Source: an uncultured Gemmatimonadales bacterium (GTDB lineage: Bacteria; Gemmatimonadota; Gemmatimonadetes; Gemmatimonadales; Gemmatimonadaceae). From it: a stretch of 64,000 nucleotides of DNA. The notes below the pieces were generated by a model that saw nothing but the letters and a program-made list of their open reading frames with translations, searched no databases and was not told where the DNA came from. The stretch is from contig CAVPQB010000004.1 of the NCBI GenBank assembly GCA_963707505.1, positions 928,001 to 992,000 of the forward strand, read 5' to 3'. Positions 16,414-24,494 of this stretch are shown here, piece by piece; position 1 is the stretch's first letter, and the number at the start of each line of letters is the position of its first letter. The translations under genes were made by a program, and so were the position numbers.

Positions 16414-17721
16414 TCAACGCAGACTGCGGAACGCCCGCGCTGCTGCGTTGATCGTGTGGTCGGTCTCGGTTTCGCCGTGCTCTGTCGAAACGAACCACGT
16501 CTCGAACGCCGACGGCGGTGGAGAGACGCCGAGGTCGAGCATCGTGTGGAAGAAGGCGGAGTAGCGACGCGTGTCCGACGCGCGCGCATGTGCGTAGTCG
16601 GTCACCGGCCCGTCCGAGAAGAACGGTGTCAGCATCGTACCCATGTGCGGAACCTGGAGGCTCACGCCAGCGGTCGCCGCTTCGCGCGCGAGGCCCTTGG
16701 CAAGTGCGGTTGTCGCATCTGCCGCACGCTGCCAGACGCCAGGCCTCGCCAGCTCGCGAAGAACGGCGATTCCTGCCGCCATCACGACCGGGTTTCCGGC
16801 GAGCGTTCCCGCTTGATAAACAGGGCCGTCGGGAGCAATCTGTCGCATCAGGTCGGCACGGCCGCCGTACGCTCCGACAGGAAGGCCGCCGCCAATCACC
16901 TTGCCCAGCGTGGTCAGATCCGGCGCAATTCCGAATAGCGTCTGCGCGCCGCCCGGATGTACCCGAAAGCCTGTCATTACCTCATCGAAGATGAGCACGG
17001 CGTCGTACGCGGTCGTCTGCCAGCGCAGGACTTCGAGGAAGCCGGGCAGCGGTAGCACAACTCCCATGTTGCCAGCGATCGGCTCGACGATGACGGCCGC
17101 GATCTTGTGACCGTATTCCGCGAATGCGTTACGGACCGCCTCGACGTCATTGTACGGTAGCACCATCGTGTCACGAGTTGCTGCAGCTGGAACTCCGGGT
17201 GAATCCGGAAGTCCCAGTGTCGCGACGCCGGATCCAGCGCGCGCGAGAACCGAATCTGAGTGACCGTGATAGTTGCCGTCGAACTTGATGATGAGATCGC
17301 GCCCCGTCGCTGCCCGAGCGAGCCGAATCGCGCTCATGACAGCTTCGGTGCCGGACGTCACGAATCGCATTACCTGCATCGACGGCACGAATTGCTGAAT
17401 CGCCTGTGCGAGCTCGGTCTCCTGCGTGCTCGGCGCTCCGAAGCTCGTGCCTCGCGACGCAGTCTCGGTGATCGCGTCCAGCACAACTTGCGGCGCGTGA
17501 CCCAGAATGTGCGGACCATACGCGAGCACATAATCCACCAGGCGATTGGTATCGGCGTCCGTGACGTACGCGCCCTTGCCACTTACAATGAAACGCGGTG
17601 AGCCGCCGACGCCGTTGAACGCACGCACTGGCGAGCTGACTCCGCCCGGAAAGTAGTGTCGGGCGACATCATAGAGTCGCGCGGATTCTGAGGTATCTGG
17701 CGTCGTGTCGATCGATGTCAT
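16414..17721 (-). CDS. hemL: Glutamate-1-semialdehyde 2,1-aminomutase
   Basis: PGGVSSPVRAF, SGTEAVMSAIRLAR, YHGHSD, FDEVMTGFR, GKVIGGGLP; ATGA overlap with the upstream gene. Confidence 0.97.
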   Translation of the reverse strand: MTSIDTTPDTSESARLYDVARHYFPGGVSSPVRAFNGVGGSPRFIVSGKGAYVTDADTNRLVDYVLAYGPHILGHAPQVVLDAITETASRGTSFGAPSTQETELAQAIQQFVPSMQVMRFVTSGTEAVMSAIRLARAATGRDLIIKFDGNYHGHSDSVLARAGSGVATLGLPDSPGVPAAATRDTMVLPYNDVEAVRNAFAEYGHKIAAVIVEPIAGNMGVVLPLPGFLEVLRWQTTAYDAVLIFDEVMTGFRVHPGGAQTLFGIAPDLTTLGKVIGGGLPVGAYGGRADLMRQIAPDGPVYQAGTLAGNPVVMAAGIAVLRELARPGVWQRAADATTALAKGLAREAATAGVSLQVPHMGTMLTPFFSDGPVTDYAHARASDTRRYSAFFHTMLDLGVSPPPSAFETWFVSTEHGETETDHTINAAARAFRSLR

Positions 17722-18797
17722 GCGGCTTCCTCTTTCTGTCGTGCTGCAAGGTATGTCGCCGCTGACGCGCCGGCACGCTCGCCCGAACAAATGCAATCGG
17801 GGATTCCAATGCCGTGAAACGTCGACCCAGCTATGAAAATCCCCGGAGCCGCTGCGAGCGCGTCGCCAAGTGCTGTCACGTTCGCGTCGTGATCGGGTGG
17901 GTACACGGGGATTCCAGCCGGCCACTCGTACACCCGCGTGAATAGCGGCGTGGCAGTGACGCCTAGAGTAGAGGCGATCTCCGTGCGTATCAGTGAGACT
18001 GCATCGAGCCCACAGCCGCGAACATATCCACGCAGAAGGACAACCCCCCGCGGCGCATGAGTCGGATTCTTGGAAGACGTCCACGTGCAGGCGCTGACTG
18101 CGGACGACGGGTCCGTTACCAGATAGCCGGTGCCCGAGAGCGAGCACTGAACATCCTCAGCGTTCCACGCCATGGTTACGGTGGTCGTTGCAGGGTATGC
18201 GATTCCGTCCAGCGTCTCCGCCCCTTTTACTGCAAGCGATGACAAGAGCGTCATGGCTGCACGTGCGGGAACTGCAACGATCGTGGCATCTGCGCTCAGC
18301 GAAGTGCCGTCCGCGAATTTCGTGATCCATCGTCCATCAGCCGTGCCCTGGATCGACTCTGCGGCTGCGTTCGTGCGCACCGTAACGTCGCTCAGCGCTG
18401 CGGCAGCCACGTCGATCAGTTCCCGGACCCCGTTTCGGAAGCTCAGCAACTCACCGTCGAAAGTCGTCGATGATCGCCGAAGCTCGCCGTCCCGACGTTC
18501 GTATGTCGGCAAGTTGTCAGGATTCACACGAATCACGCGTGTACCGAGCGACAGAGCATCGAAGAGGCTGGTAGCGCGCAGCTTGTTCCCGATGCAAACG
18601 TCAGCACCACCATCGACCACGCATCCATCCACAACGTCGCCCGCGATCTTGCCGCCGAGCCGAGCCGCCGAATCAGCCAGCGTGATAGTGCAGGAGTCGT
18701 TCAGTGCACGAATGCGGAGCGCGGCTGCGATTCCCGCGATTCCACCACCGATGACAAGAATCTCTTGCGTTGCGGTTGTCTCGATACTGCCGGTCAC
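17718..18797 (-). CDS. hemY: HemY-type (copro/proto)porphyrinogen oxidase, internally shortened
   Basis: GGGIAG FAD motif, RLGGKI, GTGYLV, ACTWTSSK, GIGIPDCI; about 359 aa; GTGA overlap with hemH. Confidence 0.85.
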   Translation of the reverse strand: MTGSIETTATQEILVIGGGIAGIAAALRIRALNDSCTITLADSAARLGGKIAGDVVDGCVVDGGADVCIGNKLRATSLFDALSLGTRVIRVNPDNLPTYERRDGELRRSSTTFDGELLSFRNGVRELIDVAAAALSDVTVRTNAAAESIQGTADGRWITKFADGTSLSADATIVAVPARAAMTLLSSLAVKGAETLDGIAYPATTTVTMAWNAEDVQCSLSGTGYLVTDPSSAVSACTWTSSKNPTHAPRGVVLLRGYVRGCGLDAVSLIRTEIASTLGVTATPLFTRVYEWPAGIPVYPPDHDANVTALGDALAAAPGIFIAGSTFHGIGIPDCICSGERAGASAATYLAARQKEEAA

Positions 18798-19768
18798 ATC
18801 CATCCGGCGTCCTGAGCACGACGTGCGATGATCGATGCCAGCTGCCGCACGAATTGCGGATCGTCGTTCAGCGACGGCGGCCGTTCCAGGTGCATCCCAA
18901 GCTCGCGCGCGATACGCTGTGCGTCGATGTCGATGTCGTAAAGGATTTCGACATGGTCACAGACGAATCCTACAGGCACACTGACGATGTTGCGTATGCC
19001 GCGCGCGGCGAGCGCCGCCAGATGATCGGGGTAGGTGGGACCCAGCCATGGCTCGGGGCTGCGACCGGCGGACTGGTAGCTCCACGACCACCGGTCAGAC
19101 GGTATTCCCGCGCTCTGCGCAACGAGCTGCGCAGTCTCGTGAACCTGCGCATCGTATGGATCGCCAGCGCGAATGATGCGCTCGGGCAGGCTGTGCGCAC
19201 TGAAGATCACGTGCACCGAATCACGCTCCGCTTCGGGCCAGCGCGCGATGCCGGCGAGCACACGATCGGCAAGCGCGGCGATCAGACCGGGCGCGGTGTG
19301 ATAACTATCGACGTGCGCGAAGTCGATGTGCGTGTGGTACATCGAAAGCCCATCGGCAATCTTCGCCTGATAACGCGCGATGCTCATGCCGCTGAAGTGC
19401 GGTGCGAGGACCATGCTGACAGCACGGTCGATTCCATCGACGCTCATCCGGCCAACCGTTTCCTCGATCCACGGCGACCAGTGGCGCATCCCGACGTACA
19501 CGCGGAAGCGCTGCTGCAAACCGGCGGGATTGAGCGTGCGCTCGATACCGTCGGCCTGGCGCCGTGTCAGCTCGGCGATCGGCGAGCGGCCGCCTATCGC
19601 TTCGTAGTTACGTGAGATCTCAGCGAGTACGGCGGGCGTTGTAGGACGGCCATCGCGTATGTCCGCGAGATAGCCGGGAATCTCGGCAAGCGAGTCCGGT
19701 CCGCCGTACGCCATGAGCAGCACACCGATCGGTGCAGTTTGGGCAGCTTCGTCCGGCATGCGAGTCAA
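18794..19768 (-). CDS. hemH: Ferrochelatase (CpfC/HemH type)
   Basis: LLMAYGGP, GMRHWSP, FSAHSLP, QSAG..PEPWLGP, GFVCDHVEILYDID. Confidence 0.95.
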   Translation of the reverse strand: MTRMPDEAAQTAPIGVLLMAYGGPDSLAEIPGYLADIRDGRPTTPAVLAEISRNYEAIGGRSPIAELTRRQADGIERTLNPAGLQQRFRVYVGMRHWSPWIEETVGRMSVDGIDRAVSMVLAPHFSGMSIARYQAKIADGLSMYHTHIDFAHVDSYHTAPGLIAALADRVLAGIARWPEAERDSVHVIFSAHSLPERIIRAGDPYDAQVHETAQLVAQSAGIPSDRWSWSYQSAGRSPEPWLGPTYPDHLAALAARGIRNIVSVPVGFVCDHVEILYDIDIDAQRIARELGMHLERPPSLNDDPQFVRQLASIIARRAQDAGWM

Positions 19769-20886
19769 GCGCCGTAACCGCGCGCAGTAACCTCATGCAC
19801 GTAGTCCACGAGTCTGCGCACGCTGTCGACTGGTGTCGATGGAAGAATTCCGTGACCGAGATTGAAGATGTGGCCGGGACGGGACCCAGCGCGCATCAGC
19901 ACGTCATCGACCTGCGCCTTCAACTCTCGCCAAGGCGCGAGCAGTGCAATCGGATCAAGGTTTCCCATGATCGAATACCTGTCACCAAGTCTCGTGCGCA
20001 CCGAATCGAGCGGTGTGCGCCAGTCGATCCCCAGAACGTCACCACCGCACGCCGCGACGTCGTCGATGTATGCGCCGGTGCCGGTGCTGAAGTTGATTAC
20101 GGGAACCCCGGCAGCCATGACCGCGCGGTAGAGCGCTGCATTGTACGGCTGCACGTAACGCGCATAATCGTGTGGACTGAGCGCGCCCGCCCACGAGTCG
20201 AACACTTGCAGAACATCCGCGCCTGCACGTGCCTGCGCGACGAGGTAGTCGGCAAGCACAGTAACCAGGCGGCGCATCAAGCGACTCCACGCAGCAGGTT
20301 CCGCGTACATGAAGCTCTTCGCCACGTCATAGCGTTGCGAGCTGGCGCCCTCGATCGCGTAACATGCCAGTGTAAACGGCGCGCCGGCGAATCCGATCAG
20401 CGCTGTCGACGCGGGCAGCGCGTCTCGTACGAGCCGAATCGCACCGAGCGTACCGCGCATCGTCTGCTCCGCTGGTGGAGTGCCGAGCATGTCGACGTCA
20501 CGTGAAGCGCGAACCGGGTTCGCGATACGTGGGCCGGCGCCCGCGACGAAGTCGAGCTCGAGTCCCATGCCGATGAGCGGCGGAAGGATGTCGGAAAAGA
20601 TGATCGCCGCGTCGACACCGAGTGCGTTCACGGGCTGCAGCGTGATCTCGGCCGCAGTCGCGGGATCGCCAATCGCTTCCAGCATCGTCTGTTGCGCACG
20701 GATCGCGCGATACTCCGGCATGTACCGTCCGGCCTGGCGCATCAGCCACACGGGCGTGTGCGGCACAACCTCTCGACGGCAAGCGCGAACGAGAACGGAA
20801 CCCGCAGCTACGCTCGCGGAGGGTGCGTCCCCGTGGACAGGCCGCATTGAATGATGCTGGGTTGCAGGCGGACGCGTTGCTGCCAT
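19765..20886 (-). CDS. hemE: Uroporphyrinogen decarboxylase
   Basis: PVWLMRQAGRYMPEYR, DAAIIFSDIL, IGFAGAPFTLACY, HIFNLGHG. Confidence 0.97.
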   Translation of the reverse strand: MAATRPPATQHHSMRPVHGDAPSASVAAGSVLVRACRREVVPHTPVWLMRQAGRYMPEYRAIRAQQTMLEAIGDPATAAEITLQPVNALGVDAAIIFSDILPPLIGMGLELDFVAGAGPRIANPVRASRDVDMLGTPPAEQTMRGTLGAIRLVRDALPASTALIGFAGAPFTLACYAIEGASSQRYDVAKSFMYAEPAAWSRLMRRLVTVLADYLVAQARAGADVLQVFDSWAGALSPHDYARYVQPYNAALYRAVMAAGVPVINFSTGTGAYIDDVAACGGDVLGIDWRTPLDSVRTRLGDRYSIMGNLDPIALLAPWRELKAQVDDVLMRAGSRPGHIFNLGHGILPSTPVDSVRRLVDYVHEVTARGYGA

Positions 20887-21884
20887 CAATCGTTCAGCCA
20901 CCGCGCGGCATCCTTCGCGTGATATGTGATGATCATTCCGGCGCCCGCCCGTCGCATCGATGTGAGTGATTCGAGCACGATCGCGCGCTCGTCGATCCAT
21001 CCTGCCGCGGCCGCAGCCTTCACCATCGCATATTCGCCACTCACATTGTACGCGACGAGGGGCACGCCCGGATGCGCGGCGCTCACGGCGCTCACGATGT
21101 CGAGATAGGCGAGCGCAGGCTTCACCATCAGTAAATCCGCACCTTCAGCAACATCGAGCGCACTCTCCCGCAACGCGATACCGCGGTTCGCGGGGTCCAG
21201 CTGATGCGTGCGACGGTCGCCGAACGTCGGTGCGCCACCCGCCGCCTCGCGGAACGGGCCGTAGTACGCCGATGAATACTTCACGGCATAAGCCATGATG
21301 GCGACATTCGCATGGCGTGCGTTATCGAGTGCGATACGGATCGCACCGACGGCGCCGTCGATCATTCCGCTTGGTGCGACGATGTCCGCGCCCGCCTCTG
21401 CGTGCGATATTGCAATCCGTTGCAGGGAATCGAGCGTCTCGTCGTTGATCAGATATTGCCGAGCGTCGAGAATCCCGCAGTGTCCGTGCGAGGTGTACTC
21501 GCACATGCACACGTCCGTGATGACGACGAGATCAGGTGCGTGAGTCTTGAGAGTACGGATCGCGCGCTGAACGGCACCGTCGGACGCGTAACTCTCCTTC
21601 CCATGTGGATCCTTTCGCTCCGGTGCCGGGACCCCAAATAGAATCACCGCGGAAACGCCGACTGCGATGAGCTCATTGGCGATGGCCGTTACACGATCGA
21701 CGGAAACGCGATTGATTCCTGGCATCGATTCGATCGACTCGACGACGTTTTCGCCGTCCGTGACGAAGATCGGTGCGATGAGATGCTCTGGTCTCAGCGA
21801 AGTCTCGCGCACCATTCGCCGCAGCGTGTCGCTGGTGCGCAGCCGGCGGAGTCTCACGGTGGGGAACTGGCCGGACTCGGTCAT
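20886..21884 (-). CDS. hemB: Porphobilinogen synthase (Zn-type)
   Basis: DVCMCEYTSHGHCG, APSGMIDG, YGPFREA, MVKPA, YNVSGEYAMVK. Confidence 0.97.
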   Translation of the reverse strand: MTESGQFPTVRLRRLRTSDTLRRMVRETSLRPEHLIAPIFVTDGENVVESIESMPGINRVSVDRVTAIANELIAVGVSAVILFGVPAPERKDPHGKESYASDGAVQRAIRTLKTHAPDLVVITDVCMCEYTSHGHCGILDARQYLINDETLDSLQRIAISHAEAGADIVAPSGMIDGAVGAIRIALDNARHANVAIMAYAVKYSSAYYGPFREAAGGAPTFGDRRTHQLDPANRGIALRESALDVAEGADLLMVKPALAYLDIVSAVSAAHPGVPLVAYNVSGEYAMVKAAAAAGWIDERAIVLESLTSMRRAGAGMIITYHAKDAARWLND

Positions 21885-22663
21885 TGAATGGTCATCGGCG
21901 GAGTTTGCTGCACATTGTCGTGCGGGCCGATGCCGAATATCCTGGAAAGCGCGCTAACGACGCCATCCAGAGTGTACACCCCCGCAACAGCCGAGACCGG
22001 CAACCCCACCTGTGTCGCTGCTTTCGCAGTAACGGGTCCAATGCAGACTATCCGCGGCGCGACGGAGGTGCCGAAGCAGGCTACGAATGCGTGCACTGCT
22101 GATGGACTGGTGAACGTTATCGCATCGGCTTCCAGTATCCGACTTCGAGTCTCGTCCTGCACGGTGCGAGCGACTGTGTCGTACAGAATCCGTTCCACGA
22201 CGTCGGCACCCCGTGCGCGCAGCGTATCCGAGAGAACCGAGCGCGCACCGGCTGCGCGCGGCCAGAGAATTTTCATTCCTTTCACGTCGCCAAGCGCATC
22301 GGCCAGCGACTCGGCGACGAATTCAGGTGCCGTCACTGCCGAGGTCGCGCCGAGTGCAGCAACCGCCCGGGCAGTAGCCGGTCCAACCGCCGCGATCGCG
22401 CGATGCAACCGGAATGCTGTCTGATCGGCAGCATCGAGCCGAGCCCAGAACATGCGCACGCCATTCGCGCTCGTAAACGCAATCCAGTCGAAGTCCCCGA
22501 CCGAAACCGACGCGGCCGAATCATCGTGATGGACCGGCTCGATGCCGATGAGTGGAACCACGAGTGGTTCGGCGCCAGCTCGCCGGAGCGCGGTCGTGAG
22601 TGGGCCGTCTTCCATCTCGAATCGCGTCACGACGACGCGACGTCCTGCGAGCGGCGTCGTCAC
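21881..22663 (-). CDS. hemD: Uroporphyrinogen-III synthase
   Basis: PLAGRRVVVTR, FTSANGV, AVGPATA, FTSPSAV, CIGPVTA; GTG start overlaps the hemC stop. Confidence 0.92.
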   Translation of the reverse strand: MTTPLAGRRVVVTRFEMEDGPLTTALRRAGAEPLVVPLIGIEPVHHDDSAASVSVGDFDWIAFTSANGVRMFWARLDAADQTAFRLHRAIAAVGPATARAVAALGATSAVTAPEFVAESLADALGDVKGMKILWPRAAGARSVLSDTLRARGADVVERILYDTVARTVQDETRSRILEADAITFTSPSAVHAFVACFGTSVAPRIVCIGPVTAKAATQVGLPVSAVAGVYTLDGVVSALSRIFGIGPHDNVQQTPPMTIQ

Positions 22664-23382
22664 GCCTGCATCGCCCGTAACGACGAGCTCAGCTCCGCGT
22701 CCACGGCATTGTGCAATTCGATGTCGTCGATGCGCGTCAGGATGTCGAGAGCGATCGGATCGTCCGCGCGGCACTGTACTGCGAGCGCACCCTGGCCCGC
22801 TGCGGGCGGCATCGTCGTGAGATCGAATATCTCGGTGATGTTCGCGCGTAGCTGCAATCGATCGAGACCTGCAAGAGCAAGCAGCGCTGCGTCGTAATCG
22901 CCCGCGAGCACTTTCGCCACGCGCGCATCCACCGTGCCGCGAATCGGTCTTACCTCGAGGTCAGGACGCAGCGCGAGAACCGCCGCGGCTCGTCGCTCGC
23001 TCGATGTGCCAACCAGAGCGCCTGGCGGAAGCTCGCTCAGCTTGAGCGGACGCGCGCACACGAGAGCTTCGCGCGGATCGGCGCGAACGGGTACCGCGGC
23101 GATCACGAGTCCGGCAGTCGAGTCAGGCGGTAGATCCTTGTACGAGTGGACTGCGGCGTCGATCTCACCGGCGCTCAGTGCGCGCTCGAGCACATCGGTG
23201 AAAGCGTCAGGAGCCAACTGCGGCGCGGGAACGTCGAGCATCATGTCGCCCGACGTTTCGTATTCGCGCACTTCGACGTCGAGTTGAGGATGCGCAGCGC
23301 CAAGCAGTCCGGCGACGATCGCCGTCTGGCGCAGTGCGAGCTCGGACTTCCGGGTCCCAACGACGAAACGTCCTGTCATCAT
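22660..23382 (-). CDS. hemC: Hydroxymethylbilane synthase, lacking C-terminal domain 3
   Basis: GTRKSELALRQ, TSGD, VHSYKD, GTSSERR, PAAGQGALA; ends at 240 aa before the GGC cofactor motif. Confidence 0.88.
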   Translation of the reverse strand: MMTGRFVVGTRKSELALRQTAIVAGLLGAAHPQLDVEVREYETSGDMMLDVPAPQLAPDAFTDVLERALSAGEIDAAVHSYKDLPPDSTAGLVIAAVPVRADPREALVCARPLKLSELPPGALVGTSSERRAAAVLALRPDLEVRPIRGTVDARVAKVLAGDYDAALLALAGLDRLQLRANITEIFDLTTMPPAAGQGALAVQCRADDPIALDILTRIDDIELHNAVDAELSSSLRAMQA

Positions 23383-24494
23383 ACCCCTATTGGGCTGGCC
23401 ATCCGCTTGGATTCCGATGCGCGGCGTGGTGGCGTACCTGTCGAACGAGCGGCAAGTCGCTCCTCGAGTATCGCGAGCTCTTCGCCGATTATCCGCTCGA
23501 CTGCCGGAATGACAGCGCGGCGCTCAGCATGGGCCGCTATCACATACGGCCCGAGATCGTCGATGCCGATCAGCTTCGCACCAGCCACGCTTCGGACGCT
23601 GACGTCGACATTACGCGGCAACGAGACATCGACGAGCGTCATGGGACGATCCGGCCTGTGCGCGAGCGCCGTACTCACCGTGCGGCTGTTGATCAACGGA
23701 AGTGTGGCGCGTGTCGCCGCAATCACCACGTCCGCGTCGCGTAGCAGAGACGGCAGAAGATTCAACGGACATGCGTCGGCGCCGTGATGCGCACCCATCT
23801 CGACAGCGGCTTCGACCGTTCGGTTAGCAATCGTGATTCTGCGCGGCGCGTGCGGCGCCAGCGAGCGGAGTGCAAGCTCGGCGATCTCGCCAGCTCCGAC
23901 GACTACCACGTTGCGCCCAGCAAGTCCGTTCGCAGCGGTCGCGGCGGCATCGACCGCCGCCGAGCCCAGGCTGGCCGCCTGAAGACGTCCCCAGATCATG
24001 CCACGAGCACGCTCACCGGCGCGAACGGCGCTCTTGAACGCCAGCTTTAGTAGTGGTGATGCAGCGTGCACTGCAACCGATTGGCGCAGCGAGCTCGCAA
24101 CCTGCCCGGTGATCTGGGCCTCGCCAATTACGACCGAGTCCAGTCCAGCGGCGACCTTGAAGAGATGCTCCGCCGCCGCCAGCCCGTGAAGCGAATAGGC
24201 GTGCGCTGCCAGTGCAGATTCGGGGATTCCACACGTCGCCGACCACCATTCGAGCATGATCTCGCGGACGTCGGTTGTGGTGGCAGGCGTCTCCGTGTAC
24301 AGCTCGGTGCGATGGCAGGTTGCGATCACCACAAGCCGCTCGATTCGCGGGTCGTGTCGCGCGGCAGCCAGCGCTTCGTGAAGCAGGGATGTGGAAAAAC
24401 CGGCACGCTCGCGCAGCTCGGATGTAGCCGTTCTGTGGCTGATTCCGAGGCAGTCTAGCCTGAGGCCGGTTTCTACGGCTATTTCAGTGACCAA
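23379..24494 (-). CDS. hemA: Glutamyl-tRNA reductase, C-terminally shortened
   Basis: GISHRTA, TCHRTELY, AAGLDSVVIGEAQITGQV, GAGEIA, IANRT, DVSLPRNVD. Confidence 0.92.
   Translation of the reverse strand: MVTEIAVETGLRLDCLGISHRTATSELRERAGFSTSLLHEALAAARHDPRIERLVVIATCHRTELYTETPATTTDVREIMLEWWSATCGIPESALAAHAYSLHGLAAAEHLFKVAAGLDSVVIGEAQITGQVASSLRQSVAVHAASPLLKLAFKSAVRAGERARGMIWGRLQAASLGSAAVDAAATAANGLAGRNVVVVGAGEIAELALRSLAPHAPRRITIANRTVEAAVEMGAHHGADACPLNLLPSLLRDADVVIAATRATLPLINSRTVSTALAHRPDRPMTLVDVSLPRNVDVSVRSVAGAKLIGIDDLGPYVIAAHAERRAVIPAVERIIGEELAILEERLAARSTGTPPRRASESKRMASPIGV

Follow-up and report, generated by a model that had tools for sequence, protein, structure and literature searches.

A two-domain HemC without the cofactor-anchoring cysteine, conserved as the only HemC found in a clade of Gemmatimonadaceae

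A haem operon of an uncultured Gemmatimonadales bacterium encodes a 240-aa protein that resembles hydroxymethylbilane synthase (HMBS, porphobilinogen deaminase, HemC) yet lacks both the cofactor-anchoring cysteine, Cys242 (E. coli numbering, used for residues throughout unless stated), and domain 3 past its first helix. Textbooks describe HMBS as carrying a dipyrromethane primer that is bound covalently to an invariant cysteine. The short HemC is confirmed to be a genuine, conserved protein and no product of misassembly, and it is under purifying selection, with a dN/dS of about 0.07-0.11. Because the cysteine has been lost in this conserved protein and, separately, elsewhere, the haem precursor chain is probably built without a permanently attached primer. 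The reading we favour, with belief and doubt about evenly balanced, is that the short HemC is an active, primer-free synthase that builds a non-tethered tetrapyrrole. The original prediction had offered three options: an enzyme with a non-covalent cofactor, a split enzyme, or a non-catalytic paralog. The evidence agrees best with an enzyme that has no covalent cofactor; the split and paralog options found no support, and a non-catalytic role is unlikely.

The short HemC, its clade and its operon

The window analysed is the whole stretch of 64,000 nucleotides, and hemC occupies 22660..23382 on its minus strand. A Pfam scan matches PF01379 to residues 7-209 (217 bits) and finds no match to PF03900, the profile of domain 3, which bears out the original prediction that domains 1 and 2 are present and domain 3 is missing. 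The protein scores 237.6 bits on TIGR00212, above the curated cut-off of 164, and AlphaFold models it confidently (pLDDT 95) as a two-domain fold that ends in a helix (221-239) and has a TM score of 0.91 to the Arabidopsis enzyme 4HTG. The C terminus reads ...NAVDAELSSSLRAMQA-TGA. As the prediction said, this TGA (22662-22660) overlaps the GTG start of hemD (22663-22661), although a 4-nt overlap is also found in E. coli and is an ordinary feature. No frame across the junction encodes domain 3, which likewise agrees with the prediction. The replacement of the lid motif GKGLF by APDAF and of RGN by RGT, first seen by eye, holds in the alignment with E. coli, in which the lid is also one residue shorter. 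Where exactly does the protein end? The prediction placed the end about 10 residues before the GGC motif. That is true of the similarity to E. coli HemC, which stops at E230 (E. coli E231), and alignments to solved deaminases end at residues 230-234. It is not true of the chain itself, which runs on for 10 further residues, so that its last residue pairs with E. coli G241 and C242 would be the next. By the boundaries in the accessible part of PMC3945110, which put the first helix of E. coli domain 3 at 222-241, this helix is therefore kept.

Could the short form be an assembly error or a pseudogene? This is hardly credible. About 90 independent homologs, 207-255 aa long, match PF01379 only; the top 89 (193-255 aa) carry Gemmatimonadota labels wherever they are named. 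In addition, all 15 loci from short-type genomes end at 238-240 aa, the shared end point for which the prediction had proposed looking. A gap of about 200 bp at the junction, raised as a possibility, was not seen: contigs from two of the four public soil runs examined, both from one study, bridge it without gaps. Nor was there a sign of the relaxed selection that had been considered, as dN/dS is low. In three close pairs it is 0.070-0.084 (about 0.08) for hemC, comparable to hemA, hemD, and hemB (0.059-0.147). Among nine distant loci, which are near saturation, 34 of the 36 pairs are unsaturated and give hemC a median of 0.109, somewhat higher than hemB, hemE, hemH, and hemL (0.058-0.079); hemA stands at 0.133, hemD at 0.120, and hemY at 0.170.

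Within a genus of 22 genomes, 15 carry the short HemC, 6 a full-length HemC, and 1, which is 77% complete, none; no genome has both types. Two of the 15 (G007 and G017) are unpublished, leaving 13 without them. The genomes with the short form as sole HemC include G003, G015, and G016, each 98-99% complete. In the source genome (G000), which is 83% complete, neither Pfam nor tblastn finds a second hemC. The idea of a paralog is not supported, since every short-type genome yielded the short form and no other HemC. As for the phylum at large, 92 of 299 near-complete genomes in a Gemmatimonadota sample have no PF01379 match, and haem auxotrophy may be common there. The ESM Atlas holds a 234-aa PF01379-only cluster with a viral label, the phylum being known for one member, as well as PF01379-only clusters with an Actinomycetota label, and 10 records in a phage collection match at 39-49% identity.

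A further explanation is that the enzyme is split and that domain 3 comes, in trans, from a second gene. Profiles could miss a 75-aa domain that has diverged far enough, and the source genome is incomplete. Against this, 17 of 41 relatives have a PF03900 match above the cut-off; these are the genomes with a full-length HemC (17 of 17), and none of the 15 short-type genomes is among them. A custom domain-3 HMM, built from 213 Cys-bearing proteins, finds no stand-alone domain in the six frames of the source genome (best E about 1, compared with 3e-29 for the E. coli control). One weak match that recurs was rejected as a candidate; it is a serine dehydratase-like ORF, judging by its sequence, and occurs in full-length genomes too. 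Cys-less forms with an intact domain 3, described below, need no partner at all. A split enzyme is therefore very improbable.

The operon surrounding hemC is complete, and its order, hemA-C-D-B-E-H-Y-L, is kept across the named genomes. All the genes lie on the minus strand. They comprise hemA, for a 371-aa glutamyl-tRNA reductase (23379..24494; GlutR_N and Shikimate_DH, no GlutR_dimer, and thus no C-terminal dimerisation domain); hemD, for a 260-aa uroporphyrinogen III synthase (21881..22663; PF02602, 177 bits); hemB, for the ALA dehydratase that makes the substrate porphobilinogen (20886..21884; PF00490, 470 bits); hemE, for uroporphyrinogen decarboxylase (19765..20856, with an inferred start in a frame open from 21000; PF01208, 397 bits); hemH, for ferrochelatase (18794..19768; PF00762, and TIGR00109 over its cut-off); and hemY, for a 361-aa copro/protoporphyrinogen oxidase (17718..18803; TIGR00562, 114.9 against a cut-off of 97.85) whose alignment reveals an internal deletion of ~110 aa. 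The last gene, at 16414..17721 (PF00202, start inferred), we take to be hemL, for glutamate-1-semialdehyde aminomutase, from its operon context and a GGVSSPVRAF motif. Two of these enzymes are trimmed throughout the clade. HemA, at 361-371 aa, has no GlutR dimerisation domain, although a genus member with a full-length HemC does have one. The HemY deletion follows the FAD-binding N terminus, and the length from GxGxxG to the end is 341-364 aa in the clade versus 445-475 aa in four loci outside it. Counts of promoters and terminators were at chance level only.

What surrounds the pathway? A ChdC-like gene, haem-copper oxidases, and cytochrome c assembly genes occur in all five genomes tested. 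In the source genome, the ChdC/HemQ-like gene (L115:1351-2145, on G000:C4) lies outside the operon, ~2 kb before the window; it matches PF06778 and scores 242 bits against an NCBIfam cut-off of 253, pointing to a putative coproporphyrin-dependent route. Of the four full-length COX1 matches elsewhere in that genome, one contains an in-frame TAG (G000:C4:409498-410841). An HmuV-like ATPase (261.4 bits, cut-off 261) is paired with a FecCD permease at G000:C2:60836-62669 (L249:6834-8670), with no binding protein gene seen beside them. Haem import is therefore possible.

In sister Gemmatimonadaceae, the short HemC is part of HemA-HemC-HemD triple fusions of 853-869 aa (L042:6912-9518, L043:6921-9494, and protein P0121). 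In the sister genomes G326 and G327, such a fusion, in one frame of 858-869 aa, is the only HemC found. Proteins P0122 and P0123 join a short HemC directly to HemD with almost no linker. Fusion alone is no proof of channelling, because full-length HemC-HemD fusions are also common.

Residues kept and lost

Which parts of the deaminase has the short HemC retained? Across 89 distinct short sequences, the set left after unpublished loci were dropped, F62, S81, K83, D84, S128, S129, R131, R132, R149, G150, R155, R176, Q198, and R206 are invariant, as are R11, S13, and Q19 wherever they are covered. The part of the substrate site that lies in domains 1 and 2 is kept (R11, S13, Q19, S81, D84, R149, and R155), and so are pyrrole sites 1 and 2 (K83, T127, S128, S129, R131, R132, R155, and R176). 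The losses are equally consistent. Both C242 and N151 are present in 0 of 106 short sequences and in 44 of 44 full-length ones. The lid GGKGL is replaced by an acidic version, A-P/A-D-A-F, that is one residue shorter and has lost K55 and K59. Q135 is replaced, and R232 is lost in 86 of 106. Position 130, Leu in E. coli, is Glu or Asp in 79 of the 89, while no acid is among the five commonest residues there in the 44 full-length sequences.

When these residues are mapped on the human structures described in the accessible text of PMC7959689, a division of roles appears. The kept set corresponds to the substrate site and pyrrole sites 1 and 2. Human K70 and K74, together with the domain-3 arginines, contact the cofactor, and loosely, only after its displacement in ES2, whereas N169 (N151 in E. 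coli) touches the substrate analogue in the holoenzyme and not in ES2. The parts that serve the primer are therefore those lost, and the parts that serve condensation are those kept. While this mapping is shown, its mechanistic reading is an interpretation: the pattern suggests that the primer may be absent altogether, and not just loosely bound.

How might such an enzyme work? Porphobilinogen would be deaminated as usual, at a single site, by Q19 and D84. The first ring would be held non-covalently, and the chain would grow to four rings only. A four-ring chain would need the substrate site and sites 1 to 3 but not the back sites, which serve a six-ring chain of cofactor plus product and which are the ones lost. 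Finally, ring A would have its free aminomethyl end deaminated and hydrated, giving hydroxymethylbilane for HemD. Deaminases can turn an aminomethyl bilane into the hydroxymethyl form. More speculatively, a carboxylate near the old anchor might bind the free amine, a role that could fall to the Glu or Asp at 242 of the Bacillaceae proteins described below and to the Glu or Asp at 130 in this clade. Primer-free synthesis has in its favour the sole HemC, the complete operon, the purifying selection, and the repeated loss of the cysteine elsewhere. Against it stand the trimming of HemA and HemY, the somewhat higher dN/dS of hemC than of hemB, hemE, hemH, and hemL among the distant loci, the incomplete covariation of residues described below, the absence of an acid at 130 and 242 in fused forms, the possible import of haem, the need to fix the length at four rings without domain 3, and human Cys261, which is essential in HMBS according to the portion of PMC10577081 available. 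The same portion lists Cys261, Arg251, and Ser262 as intolerant to mutation, so the canonical enzyme does not simply function untethered. It lists N169, K70, and K74 as tolerant, and their loss is therefore no proof of an adapted mechanism.

An unlikely alternative to primer-free synthesis would have the dipyrromethane primer still in use, bound non-covalently and recycled. All the residues that bind cofactor rings c1 and c2 in the resting holoenzyme are indeed invariant, but a chain of whatever kind would have its growing end there, and the residues that hold the slid-back cofactor (the lid lysines, the domain-3 arginines, and the equivalent of S262) are those that are lost.

Might the protein instead have little or no activity and serve to bind pyrroles or to scaffold HemD or HemB, while haem is imported or made by an unknown enzyme? 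The HmuV-like importer fits such a role, as do the need for Cys261 in human HMBS (in the part of PMC10577081 cited above), the trimming of three enzymes of the operon, and P0150, a Cys-less protein from elsewhere that also lacks S128 and R131. Yet D84, Q19, R11, and all the active-site arginines are invariant; the upstream and downstream enzymes are intact and under equal selection; the genomes searched yielded no second HemC; and a genus member that has a canonical HemC carries FecCD permeases as well. Such a role is rather unlikely.

The fixed length of the short HemC invited another idea. In 96 of 106 sequences, 9-10 residues follow E231, which would place the C-terminal carboxylate at the anchor site. 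The idea loses force because the tails of HemD vary just as little (259-260 aa) and because the fused forms have no terminus there.

Cysteine-less HemC in other lineages

A profile search covered 1.84 billion representatives. Among the best 150 matches, which were those examined, are Cys-less HemC proteins with domain 3 intact, namely CbiX-HemC fusions with Phycisphaerae labels and a group from the Bacillaceae. In a thinned sample of 216 sequences, which is biased in that it was drawn with the short-clade profile, N151 is absent from 54 of 64 Cys-less and 2 of 152 Cys-bearing members; P0156 is ambiguous, its Cys being two places off. A covariation of Cys242, N151, and K59 is nevertheless statistically unsupported, because only 4 independent pairs fall on starred branches (sign test p 0.125).

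The Bacillaceae group was drawn again independently, around P0196. Of 120 homologs, 109 are Cys-less and carry Glu (90) or Asp (19) at 242; N151 and K59 are kept in none, K158 is Gln in 106, and D84 is kept in all 109. The 11 Cys-bearing homologs keep N151, K59, and K158. The Glu/Asp-242 proteins (P0196, P0300-P0418, and L139:1465-2436) include some labelled Oceanobacillus sp. CAU 1775 and Amphibacillus sp. MSJ-3. In G524, the one genome in which copies were counted, the sole HemC carries C242D, N151T, and K59Q within a hemA-hemX-hemC-hemD-hemB operon. Among 401 Bacilli genomes, the best relative of P0196 is 53% identical, and one of the best 20 loci is Cys-less. Further away, the Cys-less P0150 and the Cys-bearing locus L066 are 75% identical and differ at C242, N151, K59, and K158, but also at S128 and R131, both of which P0150 has lost.

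The CbiX-HemC fusions that keep domain 3 without the cofactor cysteine include L145:7344-9824, P0135, P0154, and relatives. One Phycisphaerae-type fusion sits in a siroheme-type cluster of sulfite reductase-hemA-cbiX/hemC-cobA/hemD-hemB-hemL. A first metagenome scan with P0154 found nothing; in a second, the 80 loci included 2 that are Cys-less and of CbiX type and one that is truncated.

These groups bear on another possibility, that of a different and perhaps transient anchor: the first ring might be held as an ester on Glu or Asp (E129 here, 242 in the Bacillaceae), and hydrolysis would free hydroxymethylbilane. It is consistent with an acid at 242 in every one of the Cys-less Bacillaceae homologs and in locus L139, and with the acid at 130 that is frequent in the short HemC but not among the five commonest residues of the full-length enzymes. 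However, it would not be universal: position 130 is Pro in the fused short forms L042 and P0121 and in most of the Phycisphaerae proteins, and the two fused forms have an acid at neither 130 nor 242. Another cysteine would hardly serve as anchor, since the only invariant Cys of the short HemC, C204, on strand 199-205, is also found in 32 of 44 canonical enzymes. An alternative anchor is unlikely, though the likeliest of the rivals to primer-free synthesis.

How often was the cysteine lost? From the 216 rows, 9 were dropped before tree building as probably partial or frameshifted; all are Cys-less with N151 and make up 9 of the 10 exceptions. The HemC of the window is represented in the tree by L005, which is 92% identical. 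With the lid and signature columns removed, topology tests rejected a single clade for all 31 Cys-less rows (AU p 1.6e-6) and a shared origin of the short-HemC clade and the Bacillaceae (AU p 0.03 and 5.7e-5). The tree evidence thus indicates that the anchor cysteine was lost separately in other bacterial lineages. The short-HemC clade groups with the Phycisphaerae in the best mixture tree (support 77), and the two may share an origin. Taken further, and with slightly more doubt than belief, primer-free polymerisation could be a viable second mechanism reached several times, in which Cys242 was lost or became a carboxylate, Asn151 and Lys59 changed, and domain 3 was discarded. The Bacillaceae and Phycisphaerae would then represent the first stage and the Gemmatimonadaceae clade the last.

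Natural Cys-less enzymes make it testable (i) why a primer is needed, (ii) how four rings are counted, and (iii) how the product is released. Near-matched pairs exist for such work, namely P0150 with L066 and the Cys-bearing with the Glu/Asp proteins of the Bacillaceae. A 240-aa synthase, or a fusion of three enzymes, could also simplify engineered tetrapyrrole production.

Comparison with known deaminases

In the literature, the cysteine and its cofactor are treated as general (in the accessible parts of PMC3949521, PMC8561815, PMC7827610, and PMC13564367). The studied deaminases are described as proteins of 34-44 kDa with an invariant cysteine in the passages available from PMC3949521 and PMC13564367, and the relevant section of the latter, a 2026 review, gives no exception to the primer on an invariant cysteine. 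In the literature covered, main texts largely from outside the subscription journals, we found no report of a HemC that has only two domains or lacks the cysteine. Both the Gemmatimonadaceae clade with the short HemC and the Cys-less HemC of Phycisphaerae and Bacillaceae that keeps domain 3 may be new.

A short HemC of another kind is represented by NF002202 / PRK01066 (241 positions). This family is linked to Chlamydia. The two are alike in their two-domain size, the absence of PF03900, and the loss of lid K59. On NF002202, the short HemC scores 103 bits against a cut-off of 251, below a full-length HemC (142), and its mean identity is 38% to seven Chlamydia-type proteins versus 52% to 16 Cys-bearing ones. 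It has PAAGQG where the Chlamydia type has HPLQG, keeps the E231 helix and an invariant R131, and sits in a haem operon, unlike the siroheme setting of the other. N151 is kept in 4 of 10 Chlamydia-type sequences. PF01379-only clusters of Chlamydiota are found in the ESM Atlas, among them one of 223 aa in which Chlamydiota is the commonest label, and HemC'-CobA-HemD fusions also belong to the Chlamydia type. The short-HemC clade and the Chlamydia type fall apart in both free trees, yet a joint clade is not rejected (AU p 0.53 and 0.10). In these trees, Spirochaetota proteins stood in for chlamydial sequences; they are the best scorers on NF002202 but do not reach its cut-off.

The Cys-less HemC proteins of Phycisphaerae and Bacillaceae come closer in their residues: they too have no anchor Cys, carry Pro, Ala, or Thr in place of N151, have lost K59, and keep D84 and the arginines. 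Unlike the short HemC, they retain domain 3, and those of the Bacillaceae have Glu or Asp at 242.

With canonical HMBS (E. coli 1PDA/1AH5, B. megaterium 4MLQ, Arabidopsis 4HTG, and the human enzyme), the short HemC shares the fold of domains 1 and 2 (TM 0.80-0.91, 35-39% identity), the catalytic D84, the active-site arginines, a place in a hem operon, and a TIGR00212 score above the cut-off. It differs in having neither Cys242 nor domain 3 past the first helix, in its acidic, shortened lid without K55 and K59, and in the replacement of N151 and Q135. Because it is HMBS-like by every indirect test and yet lacks two defining features, Cys242 and domain 3, the short HemC is, as far as its sequence tells, best regarded as a variant and not as a plain member of HMBS.
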